A program made the position numbers and the translations under genes. From Candidatus Latescibacterota bacterium (GTDB lineage Bacteria > Latescibacterota > UBA2968), in NCBI GenBank assembly GCA_965222605.1, contig OZ244960.1, positions 3,232,001-3,296,000 of the forward strand: a stretch of DNA of 64,000 nt, written 5' to 3'. A model generated the notes under the pieces. The model saw only the letters and a list, made by a program, of their open reading frames with translations. It searched no databases and was not told where the DNA came from. This document shows, in pieces, positions 20,261-34,210 of this stretch. Position 1 is the stretch's first letter, and every line of letters begins with the position of its first letter.

Positions 20261-20347
20261 TGGTGCCGAAGGTGGGACTCGAACCCACACGGCCTTGCGG
20301 CCACTGGATTTTGAGTCCAGCGCGTCTACCAGTTCCACCACTTCGGC
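20261..20347 (-). tRNA. tRNA-Leu(CAA)
   Basis: GCCGAAG acceptor stem, GGTAGAC D-loop, CTGGA-CTCAAAA-TCCAG anticodon arm, long variable arm, GGTTCGAGTCC and encoded CCA. Confidence 0.97.
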
Positions 20348-20393: not shown

Positions 20394-20960
20394 TCAAGGG
20401 TTTTTGAAGTGATCGCTCTCCGCGCGTGGCGGTCCGATGATTTCGTTGTAGATGATGGCTTTTCGGATGGTGTTGGGTTCAAAATCGAGTTTTATGCGTC
20501 GTTTTTTGCGTTTGGGGCGAATGCGTGTTTGGGTTTCAGATGAGCGTATAAATGGGGTTTTGCCTTCGATGTAAGACGATTGGTCAGAGACCGGGCGTTT
20601 GCCTTCAACTTCCTGAAATTCCGGTCCTGTGTCTGCTTCTGAAACGGGACGTTTGCCATGCACTTCCCGAAATTCCGGTCCTGTGTCTGATTCGGAGACG
20701 GGGCGTTTGCCCTGTACCTCCTGGAACTCTGAAGGGGGTTTGGGTTCGGGTTCAGGTTCGGGAGATCCGAAGAGCACTTCCCATTCAGACAGGTCAATCT
20801 CCTCTTCAAAGGGGTCGTCGGCACCTATATCGCGGGACGGGTGCCTGCGCTGGAGTTTGGTTTCATCGGGTTCTCTGGCCCCTCGCAGCTTTTTTATGAG
20901 CGGCGATAAAAGGCCGAAGAGGAGAAACACGATTATCGGTATAATTACTTCCAGTTCCAT
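20394..20960 (-). CDS. Membrane-anchored hypothetical protein (YqfB-like position after floA) with three 18-aa repeats
   Basis: N-terminal TM helix; EFQEVQGKRPVSESDTGP-like repeat x3; C-terminal KAIIYNEIIGPPRA. Confidence 0.75.
   Translation of the reverse strand: MELEVIIPIIVFLLFGLLSPLIKKLRGAREPDETKLQRRHPSRDIGADDPFEEEIDLSEWEVLFGSPEPEPEPKPPSEFQEVQGKRPVSESDTGPEFREVHGKRPVSEADTGPEFQEVEGKRPVSDQSSYIEGKTPFIRSSETQTRIRPKRKKRRIKLDFEPNTIRKAIIYNEIIGPPRAESDHFKNP
20584..20729. repeat. 54-bp in-frame tandem repeat (about 2.7 copies)
   Basis: gaaattccggtcctgtgtctg recurs at 54-bp spacing. Confidence 0.85.
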
Positions 20961-21996: not shown

Positions 21997-23331
21997 TTAT
22001 GCGTCTTCGGTTTTTCGCACAATGACGCGACTGCCTTCGATTTCGATGATTGTGATGGGCGTGTCTTTGGTTAAGTATTCGCCTTCGGTCGATACGCTGA
22101 TGCGGCGACCGTCAAATACGCCGGTGCCTCCGGGGCGCAGGTCTGTAAATGCGATGCCTGAAGTACCTGAGAGGTCGCTGTAGGGTGCCGCAACATACCC
22201 CTCGGAAGCTTTTTCTTCGGTATCGAGTACCAGGCGATTCCAGATTCTGGATTTTGGGAGGGAACGCAAAATGAGAATGGCCAGGGCACCGGTGAGAATG
22301 AAAGATAAGAGCAAGGGGGTGAGTGCGGCGTTGATGTCGTTCCAGGTCCAGAGGTCATAGCGCCCCATGAGGCTTAAGAACAGGCTGGTTAAGATCAGGA
22401 TTGCCCCGGGAATGGCGAGTAGGCCAAAACCCACGACGAAGAACAGGTCGATGAGGATGAGCGCGATGCCGATAAAGAAGATGAGGATTTCAGACCAGTC
22501 GGCGAGGTTGACGAGCAGGTGGCTGCCGAAAAATAGTCCCAGGCAGATTAAGCCGATGGTGCCGCCGATGCCCCAGCCCGGGCTTTGGATTTCGAATATC
22601 AGGCCCAGAAATCCCAGGGTCATGAGTAGCGAGGCGAGGTAGGGGTGGGTGAGATAGCGCACGGCTTGTTCGGCCCAGGTGGTCGATTGGTGAATGATGT
22701 TGGCCTGTACGAGGTCGTAGTGTTTGAGTACGGCGACGAGTTTTTCCGATTCGTTTTTTTCGGCGATTTTGTGTTCGGCTATGCCGTTTTCAACGGCTTC
22801 TTCAGTGGTCAGGGTGAGTAGCTTGCCTTTGGGGGCAAGGCCCTCGACATCGACGTCTTCATCGACCATGGCTTCGGCCAATTTGGATGAGCGGCCGGTT
22901 TTTTCGGCTGTGGCTTTCATTTCGTTGCGGAAGTAAGAGATGATTTTTTCACTGGCTTTGTTGCCTTGTATATCGACGGCTGTGGCCGCGCCAATGGTGC
23001 CGCCTTCGACCATGATGATGTGGTCGGTAGATAGAGAGATGAGGGCACCGGCAGATATTGCGCGGGGGTTGATAAAGGCGATGGTTTTGACTTCGCTGTA
23101 GAGTATGGCGTCTCGGATGGTGAGCGCGGCATCGAGGGCACCGCCAGGGGTGTCGATTTCAAATATGACGGCAGCGACGCCCGCGTCTTCTGCGTCGTTC
23201 ATGACGCGCGTGACAAAAGCGGCAACGCCGCCTTCAATGGTGCCGTTGATTTTGGCGACGTGTACTTCTTCTGCCCGGGTGGGCAAACCGAGTCCCAGAA
23301 TGAGTACGAGGAGTGTGAGTACAGGTTTCAT
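21997..23331 (-). CDS. nfeD: NfeD family membrane protein (ClpP-like serine protease domain)
   Basis: IDTPGG, AISAGALI, AEAMVD, GKLLTLT, TM region and C-terminal TDLRPGG OB domain; directly upstream of floA. Confidence 0.92.
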   Translation of the reverse strand: MKPVLTLLVLILGLGLPTRAEEVHVAKINGTIEGGVAAFVTRVMNDAEDAGVAAVIFEIDTPGGALDAALTIRDAILYSEVKTIAFINPRAISAGALISLSTDHIIMVEGGTIGAATAVDIQGNKASEKIISYFRNEMKATAEKTGRSSKLAEAMVDEDVDVEGLAPKGKLLTLTTEEAVENGIAEHKIAEKNESEKLVAVLKHYDLVQANIIHQSTTWAEQAVRYLTHPYLASLLMTLGFLGLIFEIQSPGWGIGGTIGLICLGLFFGSHLLVNLADWSEILIFFIGIALILIDLFFVVGFGLLAIPGAILILTSLFLSLMGRYDLWTWNDINAALTPLLLSFILTGALAILILRSLPKSRIWNRLVLDTEEKASEGYVAAPYSDLSGTSGIAFTDLRPGGTGVFDGRRISVSTEGEYLTKDTPITIIEIEGSRVIVRKTEDA

Positions 23332-23386
23332 CGATAGGATCCTCCATAATATATTTCTATGAATACCTTATATTGAGGTGGTTGTC

Positions 23387-23442
23387 AAGTGTGAAGGGTG
23401 AAGTAGGAAGTGTCATCGCGGCATGATGTTGAGCCGCGATCC
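23387..23442. repeat. REP-like palindromic repeat, copy 3 (short)
   Basis: aagtgtgaag...gtgtcatcgcggcatg..ttgagccgcgatcc matches both ends of the 6597-6718 copy. Confidence 0.7.
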
Positions 23443-23494
23443 ACTGGGTGGTGGCAGGGTGGGGCTGACCGCTGATAGCTTGTTTTTCCAATGC

Positions 23495-23523
23495 TTGACA
23501 CTATAAGCGTTTTCCTGTATTTT
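23495..23523 (+). promoter_or_regulatory. Sigma70-type promoter of tRNA-Met
   Basis: TTGACA-17 nt-TATTTT, 19 nt upstream of the tRNA. Confidence 0.7.
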
Positions 23524-23542
23524 TCTCGCCCTGATATCATGT

Positions 23543-23615
23543 GGCGGCATAGCTCAGCTGGTAGAGCAGTGGAATCATAATCCATGGGTCGGGGGTTCGA
23601 GTCCCTCTGCCGCTA
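23543..23615 (+). tRNA. tRNA-Met(CAT), elongator type; CCA not encoded (CTA follows)
   Basis: GGCGGCA/TGCCGCT acceptor stem, AGCTCAGCTGGTAGAGC D-arm, GTGGA-ATCATAA-TCCAT anticodon arm, GGTTCGAGTCC; lacks initiator hallmarks. Confidence 0.95.
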
Positions 23616-23670
23616 CTAATAAATATAAGAAAGCCCGTCAATCGGTGGTGATCGACGGGCTTTTGTTTGT
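23612..23670. repeat. Left-end (att-like) direct repeat, copy A, with terminator-like hairpin
   Basis: 52/59 ungapped identity to 31332-31390; the last 41 nt are 40/41 identical; begins inside the tRNA 3' end (gctacta). Confidence 0.92.
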
Positions 23671-23847
23671 ACTCGAGGCGAGCAGAGGGGTATAACTACG
23701 ATAGCAGTTTATCAGCGTCCCTAAAGGGCGGTTATGAAGATGAACATTGGACTTGACAGTGCCGAAGCCGCGCTTGACGAACTATATGACTTCAGCACCT
23801 CAATCAGCACAGGGAGGAAGATGGTTTGCACCATTACCCATTCCTGA

Positions 23848-25818
23848 TTACTGAGAGGATAACGCGGTACACATTTTATACCGCCACAGGCCAATATGAG
23901 CGGTTTGCCTACTTCCAACATACCGAGGATTTCGTCCTCTCCTTTCCTGTGCTGGAAAAGACGCTGCACCTTTTACGCGGTATATTATTCGATGTAACTC
24001 TACTATTTCATTGCCAGCAGTCGCCTCACCAGCTAGATAACTTAGCTGGTCGTCATCGCCTCTCACCGCAAACACGACTCCATGGTCATTTGGCGTGGAG
24101 TCATAAAGGTTTGTCACCCTTGGATCATTCAAATATAAATCATGCATGATGAGGAATACCAAAGATTGTGATACACTCCCTATTCCCCCAGAATCACCTA
24201 ACAATATACTATCCAGATTATTATCCCCCTGCACAAATTCACCAGTTCCGCTAATCATCCGCAGATTCGCATCCTGTTGACTAAAATGACTTAAGACTTT
24301 GCCAGTGTATATAACATGTTCTCCACAAAAGAGGTCATGCACAATTTCATTGTAATTGTTTTGTGCTTTCAATTTTCTATGGAGAACCTCTGCGTGACGC
24401 CATCCGATTAAAGATGCAAATCTATGATTGGGGAAAACGCTCAGGAGTGTTTGTTTGGTGTAAATGAGACGGACATTGAATCCCCTTGTACGCTCATAGC
24501 TTTGATACTCCAACAGTCGAATGCGAGGATTCATATATTGAAATAGAGCATAACTATAAACCATAGCCTCAATGTCATCAGCAGTAAAGCGATCCCCATA
24601 ATGAGGACTTTCTGTGCCTTCAAATGCAAAATTCGATCCCCATATCGGTTTATTCAAGCTCCCGTGACAAGTCTGACAAGTTGACGGGTTAGTGATAGTG
24701 GGTGGCGTGTTGGAAAAGTCTATCACACCGGCTATCCACCGCGCATTTTCAACATCGGTTTGCAGGAATTCCACCTGCTCATTGGAAGAACTTTCGGGAT
24801 TTGTCGTCCACGTCAGAATAAAATCAGCCGTTGCCCCCCACGACACGACTCTTGGATGCGCTTTAGATATAAAGTCTTTTGCCGGACTTTTCGATTCAAA
24901 AACAGTCACAAAAAACTGCTTGTACAGTTGCGGTAACGCAGCTATGAACGCTTCCACAGACGACACACTATGCTCGGAAATATATGTTTCAACAACCGAT
25001 TGAGTCAGTATCTCTGGAAGCAAATCCGACGGAACCTGTGGCATTGGCGCATAAGTTGCAGACCGTTGCAAAGCAACAATGCTTTCATATTGGGCACGAT
25101 TTTGTGAATTTGACAGCAGATCACCAGTATCACCATACCGATTTGATGGCGTGCTGCCACCACTTCCGCCACCACTTCCGCCACCACTTCCGCCACCACT
25201 TCCGCCTGAAAATATTGGTCCCGCTGCCGGGATCACAGGGATGCCTAAAACAGGCGATGACCAGTCACTTGCTCCGCCGCCATCCGTCAGCGTGCGTACC
25301 CTCACCAAATACGCCTGTCCGTTGAGCAGTCCTGTGATGATCAGGCTGTCCAACTGACTGCTGACACGTTGAGTGCCTGCCCATTCGTCGCTATCTTCTT
25401 GTGGCGGATCGTATGGGTCCAGCCGCTTTCGATGGGCTACCTCATATCCGGTTACAGATGGCTTGCCATCCTCATCAAGCACGGCATCCCAACGCACCGT
25501 CAATTTGCTATCACCGTCTTCAACGACCACATTTGCAGGCACAGTGGTCGTTTTCTCGGAGCTCACTGTTTTGCCAAAGTCATCGACAAAGAGCAGGAAA
25601 TCAGGAATACCAATTACACCATTGCCATCGAGATCATATTTTGCATCATACAGTTCTTGACCCACCCTTGACCCAAACGCATCGACAAAGAGCAAAAAGT
25701 CGGGAATATCTACAACACCATTCCCGTTAAAGTCGGGAGATTTCACTGTTTGAGCTTCTACGGCCAATACAACAGCCGAGAAAACAACAACTAAAGTTTG
25801 CAACATGAACTTGTACAT
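23848..25818 (-). CDS. Secreted multidomain protein: dockerin-like EF-hand pair, fibronectin type III domain, (GGGS)n linker, CxxCH-containing domain
   Basis: Signal peptide; DFNGNGVVDIPDFLLFVDAFG / DLDGNGVIGIPDFLLFVDDFG; LTVRWD..VTGYEV..ITGLLNGQAYLVRV; GGGS x4; CQTCH. Confidence 0.8.
   Translation of the reverse strand: MYKFMLQTLVVVFSAVVLAVEAQTVKSPDFNGNGVVDIPDFLLFVDAFGSRVGQELYDAKYDLDGNGVIGIPDFLLFVDDFGKTVSSEKTTTVPANVVVEDGDSKLTVRWDAVLDEDGKPSVTGYEVAHRKRLDPYDPPQEDSDEWAGTQRVSSQLDSLIITGLLNGQAYLVRVRTLTDGGGASDWSSPVLGIPVIPAAGPIFSGGSGGGSGGGSGGGSGGSTPSNRYGDTGDLLSNSQNRAQYESIVALQRSATYAPMPQVPSDLLPEILTQSVVETYISEHSVSSVEAFIAALPQLYKQFFVTVFESKSPAKDFISKAHPRVVSWGATADFILTWTTNPESSSNEQVEFLQTDVENARWIAGVIDFSNTPPTITNPSTCQTCHGSLNKPIWGSNFAFEGTESPHYGDRFTADDIEAMVYSYALFQYMNPRIRLLEYQSYERTRGFNVRLIYTKQTLLSVFPNHRFASLIGWRHAEVLHRKLKAQNNYNEIVHDLFCGEHVIYTGKVLSHFSQQDANLRMISGTGEFVQGDNNLDSILLGDSGGIGSVSQSLVFLIMHDLYLNDPRVTNLYDSTPNDHGVVFAVRGDDDQLSYLAGEATAGNEIVELHRIIYRVKGAASFPAQERRGRNPRYVGSRQTAHIGLWRYKMCTALSSQ
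25157..25206. repeat. 12-bp tandem repeat (ccaccacttccg) x4 encoding the GGGS linker
   Basis: Directly visible in the sequence. Confidence 0.9.
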
Positions 25819-25919
25819 AATCTATACCTCCTGGTTTGATATGCACAGTCAGTGCGTATCGGGTTGTGGAATAAGATCAAGTCCAAAAAGTTCTGTAAAA
25901 AGGTAGCTCCGTGATATAG

Positions 25920-27625
25920 CCCGACTAATTCATGAACAGTAATGTTTTGGTGTGTATGGCCTGTGCAATCGGTTCCAATCAGCAAAATTAGTGTGCTTGC
26001 CGTCTTATCAGCCCGCTTTGGCGTCTTCATAAGGAGCAAGCCGCCCAGCATCGTCACCTGCCCGGCCTTGAGGGTGTCAAAAAGTACAGCCCCCTTGCCC
26101 GCTCTGTGTGTGGGCAGGTCGGTGTATTTGTAAAGTCAAGACGTGATGGCGTAGCCCCCTTCCCCTCCCCCGTTGACGAGTTATGGCACAGCTTTTGCCA
26201 GATTGCTCAGGATTTTATCAAAAAGGTGTGGCAATGGAAATGACATAGGCAGATGGAAGGTGATCTTGGTTTTCAACTCACAGACGCGCCCGGCGACTTT
26301 CAAAAAGCGATTTTGGATGGTATTGACCTGTGCGTTTATCCACTTTGTGCCTTGTAATCCGATGTGCGCTAAGGTGTGCAACAAGACATAGGCAGCCGAA
26401 TGGAGGAAGAGGCGGAACTGATTGGCTCCAAATGCGTGACAGGATGTGCGGTCTGAGTGGAGAAAGGTTTTGTGATTTTTAATGAAGTTTTCCATCTGTC
26501 CGCGTGCACAATAGACGCTTTGGTAGATAAAGGAGGCCTGAGAACTTTCAAGGTTGGTCACGACAAAGCGTGTGTTTTGGCCTCGGTCACTGATTTCTGC
26601 CTTGCATAAGATGCGTCTGGCAGCAGACCAAGTCTGGGCCTGGTAATAAAATGAGGTAAAAAGTCGCACGGGCTTCTCGGTCTGTGCATAAAGGCTTTTG
26701 GCCTGATCCATCAGGGGCTTTGCCAAGGTTAAGAGCCGGGTATTGGCGGTCTGTCCGAGGATAAAATAGAGGTCGTGGGTCAAACAGAAGTCTTGCACTT
26801 GTGGACAAGAAAAGTGAGCATCACCCCGCAAAAAGATCGCCACCCCTGGCCAAGCGGCACGCAGATAGACCACCAACCGCTTGAGGATGGCGACAAGCTG
26901 TGGACCGCTTGGACGCACACCCGGACGCAAAATCGTCGTGATCAGCTTACCACTTTGCCCTTCATATATATGCAAGGGCTGGTAGGCGTAGGCATTGAAA
27001 TAGCCATTGAATAAGGATAATTGCTGCGTCCCATAAACCGTATCCTGTGTATCATCGATATCTAAGATGATCGCCTTGGGCGGCTTTTCATAAGAGGCAA
27101 TAAAACCATCGACAAAGGCGCGAGCAATCCGATATAAGTCGCTTCTGCTCATCTAATTCTCAAAACGACTCATCGTGGGTTGACTGCCCAAGTGCTCACC
27201 ACTTATGGGCAAGCGATCACAGGCCGCCTTGAAACCCGGATCGCTACGTAAGGCATCGCAATCGTTGGCATCTTCATACCCGCAGGCAATCTGAAACACG
27301 CGCTGTTTGACCAACTCTGACACCGAATGAGCCACATAACTTGGATGCCGACGGTCTGTAATCGCCGCAATGATGCGGGATAGAATGCCAGATTTAGCCG
27401 CGACTTCTCGCAGCAACAAAACACCGCTATCGCTGGTGAGAATGCCCCCATCAAAGGCGATGTTGACACGTTTGCCGAAAATGCTTGCCAAAGGAACCTT
27501 GCTATGATTATCTTTTCTACTCACGGTAGTTTCCTCCAAGTTCATTGTTGAACGGTTATGTCCATAACCATATAATAATACAATAACTTGAATAAGGAAA
27601 CTACCTTTTTTATGAATTTTTCAGG
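25920..27625 (-). mobile_element. IS1380-family insertion sequence
   Basis: Imperfect terminal IRs CCCGACTAATTCATGA / CCTGAAAAATTCATAA; 4-bp target duplication ATAG at 25916-25919 and 27626-27629. Confidence 0.9.
26181..27545 (-). pseudogene. IS1380 transposase with in-frame TAG at 27153-27155
   Basis: FDGGILTSDSG, GYEDAND, SQPTMSRFEN*, LDIDDT, LRGDAHF, YCARGQMENFIK and DRTSCH. Confidence 0.9.
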
Positions 27626-27630
27626 ATAGG

Positions 27631-29063
27631 GAGGTTGTGCCTATATTAGTTGAAATAGTAGAGGCTCCGATGTAAATTGGATACAGCAAATTCAATCCCG
27701 AAAACGCTGTGTCCACAACCAAAGGAGCCCGTGATGAAAAAAGTATCGCACAACGCCCCGAAAGTCAAGACAATCCACCAGGCAGAGGCAACGCCTGAGA
27801 CACGCAGAGAAGAAGAACTGGGCGCACTGGATACCCGTATCGCATTGATCCAGGCCCTGATTCCCTTAGGATTAGACGCCGTGGCAGAAGAATTGCAGAA
27901 TGAAGTGAGTCGCTTGGCCGGGCACAAATATAGTCGCAAGGACAGTGCTAATCCCAATCGTCGGTGGGGCAGTCAACAAGGGTCTGTGTATCTGTCTGAT
28001 CAGAAAGTGCCCCTATCCGTGCCGAGGGTGCGTAATGTCCTTACGGATGAGGAAGTCTCTCTTTTGACCTATCATCATCTTCAGCGTCCCCAAAAGATGG
28101 ATGATGGGTTGCTGCTTCGCATGATCAAAGGGATTGCCACACGCTCATATAAAGACTGTGCCGAAGCGGTCCCAGAAGCCTTTGGACTCTCCTCTTCCAC
28201 GGTATCGAGACGTTTTATCAAGGCGTCGGCAGAAAAATTGAGACAGTTTCATGAACGCTCTTTAGCTGATTATGACCTGGTGGCCTTATTTATAGATGGG
28301 AAGACCTTTGCAGATGAGCAGATGATTATTGCTCTTGGTGTGACCATAGAGGGACACAAAATCCCATTGGGCTTTATTTAGGCTGCCAGCGAGAACGAGC
28401 GCGTCTGTCGTCAGTTTATCCAGTCGCTCATAAAACGTCACTTGTCCTATCACAAGGGCTTACTCTGCTTGATTGATGGCTCGAAAGGCTTGTATGGGGC
28501 CGTCAAAAAAGCATTGGATGGTTATGTGGCTATCCAACGCTGCCAATGGCACAAGAGGGAAAATGTGGTTGCCTATCTGCCTAAAGGCGCACAAGAAGAC
28601 GTGAAAAAAGCCCTGCAACAGGCTTACGATCTGCCCACCTACAAAGAAGCCAAAGCGGCCCTTCAGGCTCTGAAGCCCTCACTCTGTTTGATGAATGAAT
28701 CAGCACTAAACAGCCTTGAAGAAGGAATAGATGAAACTCTGACCCTCCATCGCTTGGGACTCATGCCGCACTTGAAACAGTCCTTTCGCACCACCAATTG
28801 CATTGAGTCCCTCAACTCAATGGTGGCACAACTGACCAGAAATGTGAAGCGATGGACAAACTCTAATCAACGCTCGCGCTGGTTAGCCACCGCACTGTTG
28901 GATATTGAACCCCGCCTGCGAAGGATCAAAGGCTTCCGTTGCCTTCCCAGGCTCAGGCTCGCGCTTCAAAAGGACTTGAAGATAGATACGGACTGGCAAG
29001 ACGCGCTTGCTGCTGATTGAAACCACCGGCCTCGATTATTTCAACTAAAAATAGCACTTGACC
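27631..29063 (+). mobile_element. IS256-family insertion sequence (element B)
   Basis: IRs GAGGTTGTGCCTATATTAGTTGAAATAGTAGAGGC / GGTCAAGTGCTATTTTTAGTTGAAATAATCGAGGC; 8-bp TSD GATATAGG, right copy at 29064-29071 and left copy split by IS1380. Confidence 0.88.
27677..29020 (+). pseudogene. IS256 transposase with in-frame TAG at 28379-28381
   Basis: VPRVR, GIATR, SSSTVSR, FIDG, IDGSKGL, QRCQWHK and TTNCIESLN; both track ORFs are in the same frame. Confidence 0.9.
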
Positions 29064-29073
29064 GATATAGGGG

Positions 29074-29243
29074 TCAGAGATTTTGTTTCAAATCTGTCAT
29101 GTCCAGATAGCGTCTGCCTGTGATCCACTCTTCAGACCATTCCATACACAACGCGCCGATCAGACGTTCACAAGCCTCTTCATTGGGGAAGATCTGCACC
29201 ACATCAGCCCGTCTTTTGATCTCTCGGTTGAGTCGTTCTAAAA
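29074..29243 (-). pseudogene. C-terminal fragment of a second IS256 transposase (element A); its IR lies at about 25875-25901
   Basis: LERLNREIKRRADVVQIFPNEEACERLIGA...W...RRYLDM; IS256-like end ttttacagaactttttggacttga on the minus strand becomes adjacent once the nested ISs are removed. Confidence 0.8.
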
Positions 29244-30867
29244 TTGGCATAATGTGTTCTACGCCCATATCACCTGCAAGATAGATGAAGATGTCTTTTC
29301 GGTCTTGTTTGATCGTGAGCAAGGCCGTCCCAATGCGTCTGTGCGCCGCTTGGTGTCGATGATGATCTTGAAAGAGGGCTTTGGGTGGAGCGATGCGCAA
29401 CTTTTTGAGCATTGTGGGTTCAACATTCTGGTGATGCGTGCTTTAGGGTTGATGAATCTGTCGGATGAGGTGCCTGTGGCTTCGACGTATTATCTGTTCA
29501 AGCAGTCCGTGTATGCCTATGGCCTGCAAACGGGTCGCAATCTGATTGGGGAGACTTTTTTTAGTTTAACCAAGACACAGGCGAGAGTCTTTGGCGTGAC
29601 GGGTGATCAGGTGCGAATGGACAGCAAGTTAATCGGTGCCAATATTGCCACCTGTTGTCGCTTGCAGTTGGTCGTTGGGTGCTTACAAGCGTTCTGGGGC
29701 TCGTTAGACAAGGGCGCAAAGGAACGATTATGCGCAGCAGACCGCGAGGTTTTGGACGCCTTGCTCAAGGTGAAGCCGCATCAGGTTGGGTATCCACTCA
29801 GCAGTGCAGAAAAAGGGGAGAAGCTCGAAGCCCTCGGTTTGTTAGTGTGCAGACTGTTGGCGGCCTATCAGGAGCAAGACAGCGATGAATATGGTCTGAT
29901 CGTGCGTGTTTTTTCTGACCAATACACCGTCCGTGTCTCCGCCAGTGAAAAATCAGTGCTTCCCAAGCCATCACAATCTATTTCTTCTTCCTCCTTACAG
30001 TCTGTCCATGATCCAGATGCGACCTTTCGCAGAAAAGGGGTGCAGAAGGTCAAGGGATATAGTGTCAATCTCACTGAGACCTGTGATGGGGAGGGCCTCA
30101 ATTTGATCACGGATGTAGAAGTCAAACCTGCAACGGCTGCCGATAACGCTTTTGTCCAACCGGCCATAGAACGGACACAGGAGGTGGTCGGACAGGTCTC
30201 GGACGTGTCGATGGATGGGGCTTACCATGCGGCTTGCAACAGTGCGTATGCCGACAAAGAGGACAAGCAATTCTATTACAGTGGGCTACAAGGCAGACCG
30301 GGACGTTTGATATATGAACGCACAGAAGAAGGGGTTGAAGTCATTGATCGAGAAAGTGGAGAAATTCAGCTTGCACAAGAATATAAACCGGGCAAATACA
30401 AACTCTTCATCGCAGGGAAGCCGCGATATATTACCCAACAAGACATCCTTGCCTATCACCGGCGAAAACAGATTGAAGACATGCCTGTGCACATCCGCAA
30501 TCGACGCCATAATGTTGAGGCCAGCATCTTCCAATTGAGCTATCACACAACAGGGGGTAAAACGCGTTATCGTCGGCTTTTGCCCCATCAAGTCTGGGCA
30601 TGGTGTCGCAGTTTATGGATCAATCTGGTAAGGATCAAGAATTATCTCGCCCAGCCAAATGAAGACCCCCAATAGGTGCACCCTGTTGACCCAAACATGC
30701 ACTTTGTAACCTCGTCAGCACGCCTGCAAAGCACGGGCACTCTATACACGACCCCAATACCATACGTTACCACCAAAGGCGACACAGACAGACCCAACGC
30801 TCACAAAAAACCTATAATCTCTATTACACTCTATTACACTCTATTACACCCTTTTCGGAGGGGACTC
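29242..30867 (+). mobile_element. 5'-truncated IS1182/IS5-like element (transposase ORF 29254-30675)
   Basis: GRPN...MMILKE...WSD (DUF772-like), RMDSKLI, DPDATF, KGYSVN, DGAY and R..VEA; probable right end ttttcggagggactc at 30867; no RBS or true N-terminus. Confidence 0.75.
30821..30849. repeat. 10-bp tandem repeat ctattacact x3
   Basis: Directly visible, inside the IS 3' end. Confidence 0.85.
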
Positions 30868-31331
30868 AGTCTTGATAGCGCAACATTTTTATAACAGGCA
30901 CTTTGATCTGGATATTGTTCTTTAATCATTTTCCAAAATTTCCTTCTTTGTCTTTCCTTGCTTTTAAGCTGGAGTAATGGCTGCAACCGATAGACAGAGA
31001 GAAAATCCAATCTTGGGTCTGAGTCATCTATTTTCAAGATGAAATCTTTAATTTTCTCATCCAGTTTTAGCAACTGTAAAATCAAGCGGGTTTTGGTTCT
31101 CGAAATTCTCACCCTTTTTGCAAGTGCTGTCTGAGATTGAACATAGCCCTTTTCAAGAAGCTCGTGATAATATAGGGCTTTTTTGAGATAATTGGGATGG
31201 TGCAGTTTTTGGATAACGAATTGTTTTTTCTTTTCATGTCCGATAGCGATAATGGGCTTATTGTTTTTGCGGAAGTGATGTATGGGGAAGTGGTCCCATA
31301 CGGTAAAAAGTTCAGTGAGTGGAACGGTTGG
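30868..31331 (-). pseudogene. HTH/ParB-like protein of the kind found beside large serine recombinases; 5' end at the att junction, 3' end cut by an IS
   Basis: KALYYHELLEKGYVQSQTALAKRVRISRTKTRLILQLLKL HTH pattern; the reading frame crosses the 40-nt right-end repeat. Confidence 0.55.
31284..31323. repeat. Right-end direct repeat, copy A
   Basis: ggggaagtggtcccatacggtaaaaagttcagtgagtgga, 39/40 identical to 32245-32284. Confidence 0.93.
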
Positions 31332-31522
31332 GCTACTAAAATAATAAACAAAGCCCGTCAATCAGTGGTGATCGACGGGCTTTTGTTTGTGGAGTTGTTT
31401 TAGTGAATAGCGTAGAAGGTTCAACCCGATCATCCTGTGCCATTAGTTTTTCATAGGTGATGGGTGATTTATGATATGATCCACCAAAACGGGGGAACTC
31501 CACCCTTAAATTTTCTCTTTTG

Positions 31523-31546
31523 ATATATGTCATATTTGACATATAT
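31523..31546. promoter_or_regulatory. Palindromic operator upstream of the TA operon
   Basis: ATATATGTCA-tatt-TGACATATAT perfect 10-bp inverted repeat, 7 nt before the toxin ATG. Confidence 0.75.
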
Positions 31547-31553
31547 TTCTTTT

Positions 31554-31889
31554 ATGAGTTCTTCTGACAAACCGCTGGTATGGCTTCACGGACAAATCAA
31601 AACGCCTCCATTTTCTCCATCTTCGAGAATTGAAGCGGGTTTTCTTCTGCGAAGTCTTCAAGCCGGTGAACTGCTTTCAATGCCTCAAGCCAGACCAATC
31701 CCCACTATAGGAATGCATTGTTACGAATTGAGAATTCGAGATCAGAATGAGACCTGGCGAATCATCTATCGCATTGATTCGGATGCCATCATCATAGCAG
31801 AAGTTTTCAAAAAAAGGACTCGTCAGACGCCGAAAAGAATTATTGATATTTGTAAAAGACGGCTACAACACTACGATTCGATAGGATGA
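31554..31889 (+). CDS. RelE/ParE (Gp49-like, HigB-type) toxin
   Basis: KPLVWLHGQIKTPPFS, GFLLRSLQAG, CYELRI, WRIIYRID and FKKRTRQTP. Confidence 0.9.
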   Translation: MSSSDKPLVWLHGQIKTPPFSPSSRIEAGFLLRSLQAGELLSMPQARPIPTIGMHCYELRIRDQNETWRIIYRIDSDAIIIAEVFKKRTRQTPKRIIDICKRRLQHYDSIG

Positions 31890-31892
31890 TTC

Positions 31893-32204
31893 ATGAATAA
31901 AAAAAAGAAAAAACTTCTCGAGGCTGCCGGGTGGCGTGTGGGTTCAACAGACGATTTTCTGGGTCTGACCGACGAAGAAGCCGCCTATATTGACCTCAAA
32001 ATCACGTTGAGCAAGAAAGTGCGTCAATGTCGTGAGCGAGAAAACTTGACCCAAACACAACTGGCTAAGTGTCTCAAATCCAGTCAATCTCGCGTTGCCA
32101 AAATCGAAGCGGGCGATCCCTCAGTTTCTGTAGATCTATTAATTCGATCCCTCTTCGCGCTTGGGGTCACCAAATCCGATCTCGCCAAAATGCTCGTATC
32201 GTAA
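31893..32204 (+). CDS. XRE-family HTH antitoxin (HigA-type)
   Basis: LEAAGWRVGS..DFLGL, LTQTQLA...SSQSRVAKIEAGDPSVSVDLL. Confidence 0.9.
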   Translation: MNKKKKKLLEAAGWRVGSTDDFLGLTDEEAAYIDLKITLSKKVRQCRERENLTQTQLAKCLKSSQSRVAKIEAGDPSVSVDLLIRSLFALGVTKSDLAKMLVS

Positions 32205-32244
32205 TACCGTGCATTTAAGAAGTGTTGTGCAAATGACGGGATCA

Positions 32245-32284
32245 GGGGAAGTGGTCCCATACGGTAAAAAGTTCAGTGAATGGA
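32245..32284. repeat. Right-end direct repeat, copy B
   Basis: 39/40 identity to 31284-31323. Confidence 0.93.
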
Positions 32285-32365
32285 TCAGCGTGTAACTGTT
32301 TTTTTTACTATTTGCCAAAAAATAACTATAATTCTCATTTGGTAACCATTTTTCAGGGATGCGCT

Positions 32366-32755
32366 ATGGCTAAACACGATCAAAGATATACAAGCTGGCG
32401 GGGTATGCGGCACTGATTGAGCAGTACGACCTTGACGTCGGCGGAGGCGCTTTTCCGATTCATTGATCAGACCATTGATACCGAACTCGCCGATGAGCTG
32501 GCCTTCCTGGCTAACTACGATGCGACCAAAGAAGCGATCCAAAACATCGTAGATATGCCCGACCGACAGATTGACCTCTTTATTCGTTTTTGCCTCCAAA
32601 ACAACGGTCGCCTGTCCGCAAGAAAACGTGCAAGCCACTTTGAGGATCTTGCGGATGAGGAAATCGATTCTATGGAACAGACTGTGCAATTCCCTGGGAA
32701 AATTGATACCAGCGAGCATACAGGATTTGATCCTTTCAATGCAGATTTGGAGTAA
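32366..32755 (+). pseudogene. Internally deleted Fic-family gene
   Basis: N-terminal LAGYAALIEQYDLDV joined out of frame to C-terminal IVDMPDRQIDLFIRFCLQNNGRLS..KR; no HPFxxGNGR core. Confidence 0.65.
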
Positions 32756-32894
32756 TCTGTCGATCACCAGAGCCGTCATCGCGCCCAAAAGGCTGGATGA
32801 GGGTGGGGTTTCAATACGAGCTAATTTTATACTATTCAACTGAAGAATGACAGTTTCTGTTGTCCACTTTTCTCACTTTTCCTGGAGATTTCCT

Positions 32895-33236
32895 ATGATT
32901 TACGACATGCGAACCTACGATTTGAATCCCGGTGCTTTGCAAGCCTATATGGATGCGGTGCGCGAGGTGGCGCTTCCACTGCGCGAGGACTATGGTATCA
33001 AGCTTGCCGGGTGGTATTATACCGATATTGGGAGATTAAATCGCGTGGTTCATATTTGGGCGTATCGCGATTATACCCATTTTGATCAGGCGCGACAGGC
33101 TGTCCGCAGCGATCCCCGATGGGTTAATGACTATCTACCTCGCGTCAAGGGGCTGGTCGCGCGCCAGCAAGATCAAATTATGCTCGCGTCCGATTTCTTC
33201 GAGTCCCGGGTTCCGGCTCTTTCGGAAGATCCGTAA
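32895..33236 (+). CDS. NIPSNAP family protein
   Basis: MIYDMRTY.L.PG, TDIGRLNRVVHIWAY and DPRW; GGAG RBS. Confidence 0.88.
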   Translation: MIYDMRTYDLNPGALQAYMDAVREVALPLREDYGIKLAGWYYTDIGRLNRVVHIWAYRDYTHFDQARQAVRSDPRWVNDYLPRVKGLVARQQDQIMLASDFFESRVPALSEDP

Positions 33237-33247
33237 TTCCATTTTAT

Positions 33248-34210
33248 TCAGTCGTCATCCTCGCTCGGAATGTTCAGGCGAAACAGCACGGGGTGGTGAT
33301 CCGAGTAGTGCTGTGGAAATAAGTTCTTATCGTATGGGGCGCCTGGATAGGCACTGTTGCCTTGCCAGGTGTCGCGCATTTGATCGATCAGGTTGATTAC
33401 CTGGAAATCAAACACCTCATCTATCTCGTCTAACGCCGCACGACTGGCTGGGCGATACATAACGTGGTCATAAGGTTTACTGCTCCCTGCCGCTGTGTTT
33501 GTCTTTCGACACTCGTCATTCAGAGATATAAATCCCGCTGGTATTACTGCTTCAAGTTCCGCGGCATTTTCGATATTCATATCTCCTACGATGTAGAAGT
33601 CCCGCTCTTGCGCGTCATTGAGATCGATCCACTGGGCTATGCTCAAAAGTTCGGCTTTGCGTTCTTTTTTCTTGTTCCCACCGGGGGATAAGTGGACGTT
33701 GATGACGACAAAGTCCATTTTGCCATCTATAGTGCGGAAGCCGTGGGCGTGTGGTACGCGGGGATATACGGGATGGGCAGAGCGGTCTTCTGATAGGTAT
33801 CCGTGGGGTAAATCATCTGCAATTTTCAGTTTGCCGGGTTTGTAAAAGACTACGGACCATTCGGTGCTCGATCCCCTGTTGTGGATGTTTTCGCCTCTTC
33901 CCGTGTCTTCACAAGATAGGGAAAATTTAAAGCCTTGCGCGATCATGGCGTCGAAGAATGCATCGGCTTCGGGGTCTTCGCGATAGGATGTACCATCGCA
34001 GTATTGACCGTTATCAGGTGGGGCAACGAGTTCCTGGACGATGACCATGTCGTATTTTTCGACCAATTTCGCAAGTGCGTTGTTGTTCTTTTTTTTGTAC
34101 AGACCGACGAATTTGATGTTGAAAGAACAGACTGTGATTTGTTTGTCAGAGACTTGTGGTTGGCAACCGAATAACAACAGTAGAATGAAAAATAAAAGGT
34201 GTTTTTTCAT
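33248..34210 (-). CDS. DNase I-like endonuclease/exonuclease/phosphatase lipoprotein
   Basis: Lipobox LFGC; SFNI, QEL, NVHL, GDMN, YDHV and SDHHPV. Confidence 0.87.
   Translation of the reverse strand: MKKHLLFFILLLLFGCQPQVSDKQITVCSFNIKFVGLYKKKNNNALAKLVEKYDMVIVQELVAPPDNGQYCDGTSYREDPEADAFFDAMIAQGFKFSLSCEDTGRGENIHNRGSSTEWSVVFYKPGKLKIADDLPHGYLSEDRSAHPVYPRVPHAHGFRTIDGKMDFVVINVHLSPGGNKKKERKAELLSIAQWIDLNDAQERDFYIVGDMNIENAAELEAVIPAGFISLNDECRKTNTAAGSSKPYDHVMYRPASRAALDEIDEVFDFQVINLIDQMRDTWQGNSAYPGAPYDKNLFPQHYSDHHPVLFRLNIPSEDDD

Follow-up and report, generated by a model that had tools for sequence, protein, structure and literature searches.

A tRNA-Met locus of a Candidatus Latescibacterota genome as a probable fossil of large serine recombinase islands

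Integron cassette arrays and CALINs may resemble the locus described here in their short units, hairpin-containing boundaries, fixed site and internal toxin-antitoxin (TA) cassettes. However, no integron integrase adjoined the present site, its hairpins were T-tailed bidirectional terminators, and its units bore large genes of their own and a conserved end gene. In the Streptococcus rumA ICEs and IMEs, as described in the available part of PMC4701971, one of the repeats lies inside the integrase gene, whose ORF has its 3' end exchanged on integration. The elements studied here were similar in carrying a Resolvase + Recombinase + Zn-ribbon enzyme at the element end and short direct repeats. In contrast to the rumA elements as outlined there, insertion was targeted to the 7 nt that end a tRNA gene, and sub-lineages made use of several tRNAs. 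A whole ParB/Noc-like HTH domain of ~130 aa was detached instead of a short tail, and the detached part had its own GTG at the joint in most copies. In the SSV family of "suicidal" tyrosine integrases, attP is part of the integrase ORF, the gene is split when the element enters a tRNA gene, and decayed copies accumulate (PMC7253208, in excerpt). Our elements likewise appeared to have attP within a recombinase ORF, two gene pieces flanking a tRNA-integrated element, and accumulated decayed copies. However, on that account the SSV enzymes are tyrosine recombinases of archaeal hosts, whereas the enzyme here was a large serine recombinase (LSR). The SSV split destroys the catalytic protein, whereas here the catalytic LSR part would stay whole and only an extra C-terminal domain would be removed. 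CIMEs and tandem accretions of the ICESt1/ICESt3 type are decayed, recombinase-less elements stacked at one site (PMC5704250, in the portion available). Such elements were also stacked behind one attachment site here. However, a CIME as described there keeps attL and attR, whereas our locus had attR-type junctions and no attL (P') arm, and the cognate recombinase was gone from the whole genome.

We analysed a 64,000-nt stretch of DNA (the window) from genome G000. An earlier note, made from the sequence alone, had read the region behind its tRNA-Met gene as two tandem integrase-less cassettes with shared left (L) and right (R) ends. The features are given in Table 1. The tRNA was called by ARAGORN and scored 67 bits against the Rfam tRNA model. 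The repeats that the note had described were all reproduced by a repeat search of the window. L (23612-23670) and L' were 88% identical over 59 nt (52/59), R and R' were 98% identical (39/40), both L and L' started with GCTACTA, and 8 nt lay between R and L'. The blastn search that the note had advised gave five copies of the L hairpin and three copies of R in the 6.34-Mb genome (E 1e-13 to 1e-16), and chance was therefore excluded as the source of these repeats. The unusual tRNA-Met end was also reproduced: the discriminator A at 23615 was followed by CTA, not CCA. CCA was encoded by tRNA-Leu(caa) and ended 40 of the 49 ARAGORN tRNAs of the genome. Of 19 relatives fetched, 15 had an unchanged tRNA-Met (100% identity over 73-74 nt), and the remaining 4 had it at 97-99% identity. 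Since CTA was common to 6 of the 19 relatives examined and occurred on the tRNA and on attR cores alike, a lineage mutation seemed the simpler reading.

Table 1. Features of the tRNA-Met locus (window positions)
Feature	Position	Strand	Remarks
tRNA-Met(cat)	23543..23616	+	G1.U72 wobble; putative B arm of attachment site
Core copy 1, GCTACTA	23612..23618	+	last 7 nt of tRNA as transcribed, including CCA position
AT-rich spacer + L hairpin (23630-23663) + Lflank	23619..23717	+	bidirectional terminator; B'-like arm
656-aa secreted-type protein	23848..25818	-	Pfam fn3 1.6e-8; large paralogous family
IS256-type fragment	25877-25916 + 29067-29243 (span 25877..29243)		flanks contiguous elsewhere (blastn against genome)
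Degenerate IS1380-like copy, interrupts IS256-type fragment	25917-27628		
Degenerate IS256-like copy, interrupts IS256-type fragment	27630-29064		
DUF772-type (IS5/IS1182-like) element	29244..30876	+	Pfam DUF772; 98% to one copy at 3.93 Mb
ParB/Noc-like HTH ORF	30834..31325	-	HTH_ParB 25.0 bits, cut-off 22.6
R (31284-31323) + 8-nt spacer	31284..31331	+	putative P arm of attP; box AAAGTTCAGTGAGTG at 31307-31321
L': core copy 2 GCTACTA (31332-31338) + AT-rich spacer + hairpin (31350-31383)	31332..31390	+	attR-type with R (P-core-B')
Dispersed repeat, about 104 nt	31399..31502	+	77-90% matches at other loci
Type II toxin-antitoxin pair	31527..32204	+	Gp49/HigB-like toxin 31527-31889; HTH_XRE antitoxin 31893-32204
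R', 40-nt relic of ParB-like ORF start + P arm	32245..32284	+	putative attR of tRNA-Gln(ctg) island; core + terminator deleted
Right flank: 184-aa ORF, NIPSNAP gene, 320-aa ORF	32285..34210		

What had been taken for 7.6 kb of cargo was one 656-aa fn3/dockerin gene and four nested or adjacent IS relics. The Dockerin_1 match of this protein (0.0019) was weak, below its Pfam cut-off, and blastn found about 40 diverged genomic copies of the N-terminal 170 nt of its gene. The IS copies at 25877..29243 matched about 10 genome copies at 85.7% and about 6 at 81-84% (blastn), and their DDE_Tnp_1_4 and Transposase_mut domains were each broken over two ORFs (Pfam). The DUF772-type element was a recent insertion, by which the ParB-like ORF had its last codons clipped. 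This ORF was not the HTH remnant of the earlier description. It was nearly full length, with 83% identity over 145 aa to a 151-aa relative (P0001), an altered tail, and GTT where most copies start with GTG. The fold of the protein matched Noc/ParB/Spo0J/KorB. The TA pair (Pfam: toxin Gp49 1.9e-11, antitoxin HTH_31 1.3e-9) had paralogs of 93-94% at 5.277 Mb in G000 and orthologs in the arrays of G004 and G014. The ~104-nt repeat matched loci L013, L047, L049, L055 and L056, and occurred three times in the tRNA-fMet island of G007 (L083).

Occupied and empty sites were compared at tRNA-fMet. Empty sites were found by coordinates in 7 of 20 relatives (G014, G015, G005, G017, G002, G008 and G011) and by sequence in G020. 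In the empty sites, left and right flank queries overlapped by exactly 7 nt, GCTACCA. The inserts were 32.2 kb in G000, 41.6 kb in G007, 7.2 kb in G019 and 2.0 kb in G004. At their right ends, the inward-reading ParB-like ORF and R were followed by N8, GCTACCA and the native hairpin, which gave a 7-nt direct repeat. The same R end preceded the cores of other tRNAs, GCAACCA (Gln), GGAGCCA (Asn), GCGACCA and, at tRNA-Met in the window, GCTACTA. As judged from these genome comparisons, insertion at tRNA 3' ends, with empty sites, was evidently real. This supported the earlier note in its reading of insertion at the tRNA 3' end; the locus was a hot spot of site-specific integration, with GCTACTA as shared core and R as a true element end. 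GCTACTA, the last 7 nt of the tRNA, would be the crossover core, in which we inferred the exact crossover dinucleotide. An assembly artefact was a very improbable source of the repeats. Short-read contigs did break at L and R; however, the genome was a single 6.34-Mb contig, and the same junction types occurred in many independent genomes. Pieces with 0 differences also covered both sides in runs X10 and X11, which may come from the source sample itself and so lend no independent support.

The resolvase domain PF00239 had 14 matches in 5 relatives. Four were large, with ORFs of 550-577 aa and Resolvase, Recombinase and Zn_ribbon_recom domains, and each of the four genes adjoined the 3' end of a tRNA and was directed into it. 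The LSR at tRNA-fMet in G007 was the left end of the island whose right end was ParB-R; the others were at Gln(ctg) and Gln(ttg) in G014 and at Asn in G020. An earlier hint at large serine recombinases was thereby borne out. In the LSR-bearing elements, the P' arm was the 3' coding end of the LSR (TCTCGCTGAACTTT box). A box TC[G/A]CTGAACTTT was inverted on both sides of the core, 11-13 nt away. The dyad was best centred on the T of GCTACCA; in all three attP-like junctions tested, the two arms matched without a break at positions 19-26 from this point. The AAAGTTCAGTGAGTG box in R appeared to be the inverted partner of the LSR-end box, and R would comprise the first 13 codons of the ParB/Noc-like HTH ORF and the P arm of the LSR attP. 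In fMet-, Gln- and Asn-type elements, the frame of the LSR (..VQRD..GS) coincided with that of the ParB-like ORF (GS PTV PLTELF..); as the relatives are kin, these are not three independent observations. Two LSR + HTH_ParB fusions, P0305 and P0344 (658 and 666 aa, with an extra PF17762), were present among 120 listed of 494 LSR homologues. P0305 read ..SGSPTVKSTEPLFMWDD.. at the predicted LSR/ParB joint, and the ParB-like protein aligned to fusion residues 530-656 (E 5e-26) and 533-659 (E 3e-13). The fusions may have arisen at tandem junctions, or they may stem from elements with attP elsewhere. Among 1.84 billion representatives searched with HMMER, the ParB-like domain was found only in proteins of 58-317 aa, so that fusions were either rare in assemblies or hidden under LSR-only cluster representatives. 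Because the two frames were continuous across attP and two natural fusion proteins exist, integration would split an LSR + ParB-like gene. The ParB-like ORF would be the right-end gene of the islands and, in the circle, the C-terminal domain of the recombinase ORF. The LSR presumably catalysed these insertions.

In the region from 23.5 to 32.3 kb, no site-specific recombinase was found by Pfam, as the earlier note had stated. The matches there were only DDE/Mutator/DUF772 transposase fragments, the fn3/dockerin protein, the HTH_ParB ORF and the Gp49 + HTH_XRE pair. The genome had 10 PF00589 matches, none in the window, and 0 matches to PF00239. G000 kept a 137-aa LSR C-terminal remnant adjoining tRNA-fMet (ORF 433642-434055), which corresponded to LSR residues 404-541 at 72% identity and was interrupted by an IS. 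An LSR was once present in the G000 lineage and is now lost. The recombinase had been supposed to act in trans or to have been lost since; the loss held, and cassettes excised in trans seemed unlikely.

These results made it fairly likely that the window was the fossil of LSR islands inserted at the last 7 nt of tRNAs, with the LSR lost from the genome. In relatives, the tRNA and 7-nt core of an intact island were followed by the P' arm, the cargo and the ParB/Noc-like HTH ORF, and then by the P arm (in R), 8 nt, a further core copy and the native tRNA terminator. The P' arm was the last codons of an LSR gene that itself reads into the tRNA, and the ParB-like ORF at the right end was directed inward. 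After excision, P-core-P' of the circle would be a dyad-symmetric attP of ~53 bp, within one ORF (LSR + ParB-like domain) that integration would cut in two. In the window, the order tRNA-Met, GCTACTA, spacer, L hairpin and Lflank would look like an uninterrupted attB. ParB-R, 8 nt, GCTACTA and L' would be an attR-type relic, whose partner attL and LSR are gone, with four IS copies within. The TA pair would be island cargo, and R' would be the stump of another attR, moved by rearrangement among repeated island modules. The elements of the window are likely no longer mobile. A point against the island reading was that no recombination was observed and that no circle or empty-site read turned up; the reads available were short-read contigs, which break at these repeats.

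The earlier note had regarded L as the shared left end of the cassettes and R|L' as an attP-like junction. The L hairpins were strong bidirectional terminators by folding and terminator scan (-23 to -26 kcal/mol, z -5 to -8.7; -22.9 kcal/mol and z -5.0 for the copy behind tRNA-Met). In G005, the AT-rich spacer, L hairpin and Lflank stood directly behind tRNA-Met-CCA without an insert, collinear with the window up to 23717 (95% over 219 nt). This stretch of G005 ran on collinearly over ~10 kb with the flank behind the last R-core-L-Lflank in G004 and G014, and the arrays of these two genomes were therefore inserts relative to G005. The TCTCGCTGAACTTT box was missing from both L and L' in the sequence comparison. 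Since this P' box was absent and L followed tRNA-Met in G005, R|L' appeared to be attR-like (P-core-B') and tRNA|L attB-like, not attL. L would be native tRNA-Met flank and no dedicated element end. R-core-hairpin junctions recurred around variable cargo behind tRNA-Met in the arrays of G004 and G014. These recurring junctions would be expected if two CIME-like L...R cassettes, mobilisable in trans, had inserted serially at one attB and stayed excisable, with R|L' as attP-like site. Both G000 (at tRNA-Met) and G004 (at tRNA-fMet) had L...R units with the two end types and differing cargo. The 2-kb unit of G004, with L hairpin and Lflank on its left and ParB-R on its right, fitted an L...R unit better than a native flank. 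L hairpins also lay at the left of tRNA-fMet inserts in G019, G012, G003 and G009, and tandem accretion of decayed elements is documented for other integrases in the portion of PMC5704250 available. However, L lacked the P' partner that the R box has in LSR-bearing elements, and it stood with Lflank directly behind tRNA-Met in G005. The tRNA-fMet of G009 had a lone L hairpin in place of the native terminator and no cargo, R' came from a tRNA-Gln island flank with its core gone, and G000 had no serine recombinase. A weak further point was that the short-read contigs of 4 runs contained no R/R' or exact L/L' deletion joint. Such cassettes were unlikely; the R end and the recurring junctions of the two-unit proposal stood, and L as an end and R' at this attB did not.

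R' had a context of its own. In G014 (L063), ParB-R-N10-GGGCAACCA-hairpin2 preceded the orthologue of window 32293+, 20 kb from the LSR at tRNA-Gln(ctg), and in G009 (L065) a partial R was ahead of the same flank. The orthologue of the 32285..34210 flank was preceded in relatives by the tRNA-Gln(ctg) island and not by tRNA-Met. R' appeared to be the stump of a tRNA-Gln(ctg) island attR, relocated by rearrangements whose order we inferred, and not the close of a second unit at the same attB, as had been proposed. This context also bore on the other reading offered earlier, in which L/L' would be the attL/attR of a single classical tyrosine-integrase island and a 961-bp duplication would be unrelated. 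Islands of this kind are usually recognised by an imperfect direct repeat that starts in the tRNA 3' end, as the 59-nt repeat here does. However, R/R' was no local duplication, the element ends matched LSR elements, and no PF00589 match was found in the arrays of G000, G014, G004, G007, G019 and G005, which left this reading with hardly any credence. The only nearby PF00589 gene (~310 aa, syntenic), taken to be a putative Xer-like gene by size and score, was 30-75 kb off in relatives and 600 kb off in G000.

Several attR-type junctions with the same B'-like arm could stand behind one tRNA. The spacer and L hairpin occurred again after the tRNA core, with no P' arm, in the window as in the arrays of G004 and G014, so that the inserts relative to G005 were bounded by a ~59-nt repeat. 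A simple attP x attB reaction with these arms would not predict such a repeat. It would suit homologous recombination, in which the 59-97-nt L hairpin/Lflank and ParB-R served as portable homology for the exchange of circles or transformed DNA and, in the same way, for rearrangement of the chromosome. The G005-type flank was indeed split in G000 (441 kb and 2.695 Mb) and rearranged at these modules. However, homologous recombination as the mover of the units leaves unexplained the exact 7-nt overlap at tRNA-fMet with the native terminator on the right, the tRNA-matched core changes and the constant position of LSR genes at the tRNA end. We found it quite unlikely on this basis; it probably added to LSR action and did not replace it. 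A further point in its favour was that the TA cassette was inverted relative to its flank at locus L069 of G014 and in X11 and X12 contigs.

The window probably holds relics of islands that a large serine recombinase (LSR) family had placed at tRNA tips and that have since lost the LSR, and this was the best explanation of our results. The interpretation given in the earlier note was supported in part. The repeats on which it was built were found again by a repeat search (L and L', 88% identity over 59 nt; R and R', 98% over 40 nt), and both L copies opened with GCTACTA, as had been stated. The tRNA-Met carried CTA after the discriminator A, also as read before; CCA ended 40 of the 49 tRNAs of G000, the genome holding the window (6.34 Mb, single contig). 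L and R were searched against this genome, a check that the note had proposed. The L hairpin was present in five copies and R in three, and these low numbers excluded chance as the source of the repeats. The L/L' hairpin folded with -23 to -26 kcal/mol, an energy that 0 of 200 shuffled sequences reached, and formed a strong terminator on each strand. An Rfam scan of 23000-33500 at E<=1 returned the tRNA, a sub-threshold sRNA match over the tRNA and L, and nothing else, so that neither R nor L belonged to a known RNA family. On inspection by eye, an HUH/IS200-type end and a tRNA-like 3' fragment were both rejected as identities of R, because it had no T-arm and was coding. R as unusually conserved DNA was dropped as well, since among 18 distinct copies it was not clearly above the rest of the ParB-like ORF. 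The acceptor stem of tRNA-Met(cat) was topped by a G1.U72 wobble in every genome examined (window and 19 relatives), and its discriminator was followed by CCA in 10 genomes, CTA in 6, TTA in 2 and CCC in 1. Elongator tRNA-Met and lysidine tRNA-Ile are the candidate identities of this tRNA.

Location of the features in the window and of the large LSR genes in relatives of the same genus
Feature	Location	Strand	Remark	Evidence
tRNA-Leu(caa)	20261-20347			ARAGORN
tRNA-Met(cat)	23543-23616			ARAGORN
L	23612-23670			repeat search
fn3/dockerin-type gene, 656 aa	23848-25818	-		Pfam, genome self-blast
IS256-type fragment, split by degenerate IS1380-like and degenerate IS256-like copies	25877-29243			Pfam, genome self-blast
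DUF772-type IS, recent	29244-30876		98% to one other copy	Pfam, genome self-blast
ParB-HTH ORF	left of L'	-	5' end = R	Pfam, genome self-blast
R	31284-31323			repeat search
L'	31332-31390			repeat search
Dispersed 104-nt repeat	after L', before R'			genome self-blast
Intact Gp49/HigB-like and HTH_XRE pair	after L', before R'			Pfam
R'	32245-32284			repeat search
LSR	G007, at tRNA-fMet		left end of island ending in ParB-R	
LSR	G014, at tRNA-Gln(ctg)		20 kb from ParB-R-GGGCAACCA end	
LSR	G014, at tRNA-Gln(ttg)			
LSR	G020, at tRNA-Asn			

A 161-nt query spanning R and L' matched 15 of 21 genus genomes, and many of the copies ended 13-24 nt past R. The order at these junctions was ParB-like ORF, R, 8-10 nt ending in GG, the 7-nt tRNA 3' end (the core) and an A-rich spacer, followed by one of several terminator hairpins or by the box TCTCGCTGAACTTT. 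The cores were GCTACCA (fMet), GCTACTA (window tRNA-Met), GCAACCA (Gln), GGAGCCA (Asn) and GCGACCA. For an insertion test, two separate queries were run against 20 relatives, one from the tRNA-fMet side and one from the sequence that follows the G000 R copy (465.9 kb) on its right. In 7 of the 20, the left and right matches overlapped at tRNA-fMet by exactly the 7 nt GCTACCA. The genome's own terminator lay directly after tRNA-fMet in G014 (locus L079), and G020 (L081) was alike with a small indel further on. The inserts at this tRNA measured 32.2 kb in G000, 41.6 kb in G007, 7.2 kb in G019 and 2.0 kb in G004, and all four had the same right junction, ParB-like ORF reading leftward from R, N8, GCTACCA and the native terminator. 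They are therefore genuine insertions, each sitting at the tRNA tip between copies of a 7-nt direct repeat. A short direct repeat and uninterrupted sites in relatives, which characterize an LSR element, were thus both found at tRNA-fMet. At the tRNA-Met of the window, the repeat was about 59 nt; G005 had no insert there, and G004 and G014 had arrays. The G000 region between tRNA-fMet and its native terminator (433587-471821; L071, L072) was variable over about 32 kb and contained dockerin/LRR/FG-GAP proteins, a sigma-54 activator, IS copies, and FRG, DUF1016 and HEPN genes. It also enclosed a displaced segment of L, Lflank (the DNA after the L hairpin) and sigma-54 gene that is found after tRNA-Met in G005.

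The recombinase was found in relatives. PF00239 gave 14 matches in five of them, four of which were large. All four large proteins had Resolvase, Recombinase and Zn_ribbon_recom domains, and all four genes adjoined a tRNA 3' end and read into the tRNA. The box TCTCGCTGAACTTT was the LSR's own C-terminal coding sequence. PF00239 had no match in the window or anywhere in G000, and none of the 10 PF00589 matches in G000 fell within the window. The statement that no recombinase is present therefore held, and the recombinase search that had been suggested led to large LSRs against tRNA 3' ends in relatives and to none in G000. Tyrosine integrases were rejected as candidates, because neither the 10 PF00589 matches of G000 nor the 24 of five relatives lay inside the arrays. 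Beside tRNA-fMet of G000, an IS-cut ORF corresponded to LSR residues 404-541 (72% identity; a 137-aa C-terminal remnant). Short scars with the box TCTCGCTGAACTTT before a hairpin followed tRNA-Gln(ctg), tRNA-Asn and a tRNA fragment of the same genome. These remains indicated that every LSR had been lost from G000. At locus B of G000, 20 ORFs were scanned and contained no recombinase except the LSR stump. A recombinase at one end, also characteristic of an LSR element, was present in the elements of relatives and absent from the window and G000, so the units of the window are relics and not working members; the window itself holds only fossils of the family. At 2,524,8xx of G000, a tRNA-like 3' fragment that ARAGORN did not call was followed by the LSR-end box and hairpin2, the terminator hairpin of the tRNA-Gln(ctg) island flank; it looks like the scar that an element left at a tRNA copy which has since degraded. 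In two metagenome contigs from other organisms (L090, L094), LSR homologues of 54-60% identity lay directly against tRNA-Asn, indicating that tRNA-tip targeting extends beyond the genus.

The attachment site lay within the recombinase gene. In R, the box AAAGTTCAGTGAG was the inverted partner of CTCGCTGAACTTT, the box at the LSR end. In all three chromosomal junctions of R, core and P' (P and P' being the arms of the LSR attP), the best dyad centre was on or beside the core T. At the same three junctions, 15-17 of 30 positions matched, with a contiguous block at 19-26 from the centre. This placement suggested an attP-like site of about 53 bp. An attP of about 50 bp is expected for a serine integrase. 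An imperfect dyad of this size, again characteristic of an LSR element, was thus found at these junctions, and the R-core-L' junction of the window was without the right-hand half. In the junctions read from fMet-, Gln- and Asn-type elements, the LSR (..V Q R D x x x G S) and the ParB-like ORF (G S P T V P L T E L F T V W D H..) shared one reading frame, with no intervening stop. The excised circle would therefore encode a single LSR-ParB-like fusion protein. As predicted, an extra HTH_ParB domain was present in two LSR homologues, P0305 (658 aa) and P0344 (666 aa), among the 120 listed of 494 at E<=1e-30. The joint in P0305 reads ..SGSPTVKSTEPLFMWDD.., and the 151-aa ParB-like protein P0001 aligned over its full length with the C-terminal part of each (E 5e-26 for P0305 and 3e-13 for P0344). 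The fusions were found only with the LSR query and not with the ParB-like query. A word-index search for the ParB-like protein among longer proteins gave no match; an exhaustive HMMER search gave 177 representative matches, all of 58-317 aa. The free-standing form belongs to a narrow family, with 139 matches of nearly the same length. One homologue was named as Candidatus Poribacteria and six as Gemmatimonadota/Gemmatimonadetes bins, names that give a weak lead to Poribacteria for the genus. A related-locus search for the DNA encoding P0305 gave eight other loci, L090 and L094 among them, and not the P0305 contig. In most integrated copies, GTG was found one codon before PLTELF; the window copy had GTT.

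The ParB-like protein matched PF17762 with 25.0 bits for the window copy and 31.2 bits for P0001 (cut-off 22.6). Its AF2 model had a pLDDT of 85.5, and the top Foldseek matches were Noc, ParB, Spo0J, KorB and SopB (E from 2e-3, prob 1.0, TM about 0.5). Profile and modelled fold together predicted a ParB/Noc/KorB-type DNA-binding domain.

Based on the relatives, the ends of the units were read differently from the earlier note. The spacer and L hairpin followed tRNA-Met in 8 of 19 relatives examined, and in others one of three different hairpins took its place or, in G011, the 3' end of an LSR gene. In G005, tRNA-Met, CCA, L and Lflank continued over some 10 kb, across a sigma-54 activator and an LRR gene, to the genes that in G004 and G014 lie behind the final R-core-L-Lflank junction. 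This collinearity meant that L and Lflank are the flank of the uninterrupted site and that the G004 and G014 arrays are inserts. The proposed look for an empty tRNA-Met ending in CCA thus succeeded in G005 as regards the missing insert and the CCA; L as part of an inserted unit was not supported, because it stood directly behind the tRNA there. By this reading, tRNA-core-L in the window would be attB-like, and R-core-L', which had been taken as attP-like, would be attR-like. R' had been taken to close a second unit. The sequence to its right (32293 onward) sits elsewhere in relatives, where it was preceded by ParB-R-N10-GGGCAACCA-hairpin2 in G014 and by a partial R and truncated hairpin2 in G009. 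This context indicated that R' is the attR stump of a tRNA-Gln(ctg) island; its core and its terminator are deleted, as is the ParB body that should precede it on the left. A CIME keeps attL and attR and has no recombination genes; in the window, the attR-type R-core-L' was present and the tRNA side had no P' arm.

The cassette between L' and R' contained two genes 3 nt apart, the toxin gene first. Gp49 scored 44.3 bits (cut-off 23.9) and HTH_31 38.7 bits (cut-off 27), predicting a type II toxin-antitoxin pair of the HigB/Gp49 kind. The cassette was found inside the G004 array and, in the opposite orientation, beside the same 32293 flank in G014. The segment 31516-32293 was reversed relative to this flank in G014 locus L069 and in contigs of X11 and X12, two sequencing runs that match the window, where the joint 31519/32293 joined opposite strands. 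The opposite orientations meant that the cassette had been inverted at least once.

Directly after the tRNA-Met core, G000, G004 and G014 had spacer and L again and not P'. Compared with G005, the inserts thus have a flanking repeat of about 59 nt. Three routes to such arrays are possible. The P'/LSR side may have been lost, recreating tRNA-core-hairpin; the LSR may have exchanged attL and attR across tRNA loci; or homologous recombination may have passed through L. At tRNA-fMet of G004, the 2-kb unit had L and Lflank on its left and ParB-R on its right. Five distinct R-core-P' junctions inside chromosomes showed that tandem joining also occurs. In G000, Lflank was broken at window position 23717 and its remainder lay at 441 kb and 2.695 Mb, indicating that the chromosome was rearranged at island modules. 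A PF00589 gene of about 310 aa, which we take to be Xer-like from its size and score, lay 30-75 kb downstream of tRNA-Met in G004, G005, G007, G014 and G019. The G000 copy (2,655,688) lay about 600 kb from tRNA-Met on the other strand, a position that agrees with a large inversion or translocation whose ends fall in island arrays. The window matched sponge-associated metagenome runs. Logan contigs of four runs had no joint 31324->32285 and no exact joint 23612->31332, and such contigs, which break at repeats, bear no information on rare excision. The joints present were 23639->31376 (with the loop of another hairpin), 31046->31519, about 25913->29067, and 31519/32293 on opposite strands; they correspond to paralogues or other strains.

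We regard it as rather unlikely that the split of the recombinase gene is a built-in switch. The full LSR-ParB/Noc fusion would then be encoded by the excised circle only, which would integrate at the tRNA tip. Integration would detach the DNA-binding domain from the recombinase and leave a small protein with its own GTG start, and loss of the domain would change or abolish LSR directionality. P/P' arms common to several tRNAs would let the LSR join attL and attR across loci. Such a switch would explain stranded elements decaying into arrays, and, through cross-locus recombination, tRNA genes would trade terminators and the large chromosomal rearrangements of this sponge-symbiont genus would arise. 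For the window alone, the preferred reading as LSR-island relics has a modest meaning: the repeats are scars of dead islands, which explains IS-ridden, rearranged DNA. The wider family comprises serine integrases that target the final 7 nt of tRNA genes, and its sub-lineages use fMet, Met, Gln and Asn at the least. Because attP is part of the recombinase ORF, insertion separates off the ParB/Noc-like DNA-binding domain. Nature provides here a set of related attP/attB pairs whose cores are short and defined, and the family gives a handle on genome reshuffling in an uncultured sponge-associated genus.

Related arrangements are known. The serine integrase of rumA-targeting streptococcal ICEs has its att repeat in its own 3' end, and integration alters the C-terminus (PMC4701971); splitting of the gene by integration into tRNA genes is a hallmark of archaeal SSV-type tyrosine integrases (PMC7253208); and stacked decayed elements are known as CIME accretion (PMC5704250). 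The LSR family combines the three features in a new way and would parallel the archaeal 'suicidal' integrases in bacteria and with a serine enzyme. A search of a library of open-access papers found no description of a tRNA-tip LSR-ParB family. Integrons and CALINs have attC boundaries, and integrons also an IntI tyrosine recombinase at attI, whereas the boundaries here were T-tailed terminators and a coding R end; PF00589 was absent in and beside the arrays of six genomes.

Small repeats were also observed in the window. A dispersed element at 23385-23483, just upstream of the tRNA-Met promoter, had a core of about 33 nt (23411-23443) with at least 10 genome copies of 87-100% identity. Contigs of X10, X12 and X13 had 27 other letters in place of 94 nt within it, and many loose contig ends began at 23411 and 23443; the element may thus be a small insert of the MITE/REP kind. 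A minus-strand ORF of 188 aa (20394-20960) that had no Pfam match contained, at 20584-20745, three 54-nt units in tandem (100, 83 and 65% identity). In the fn3/dockerin gene, the 12-nt repeat GCCACCACTTCC was present in three to four copies at 25156-25215 and is probably a Gly/Ser-type linker of variable length.
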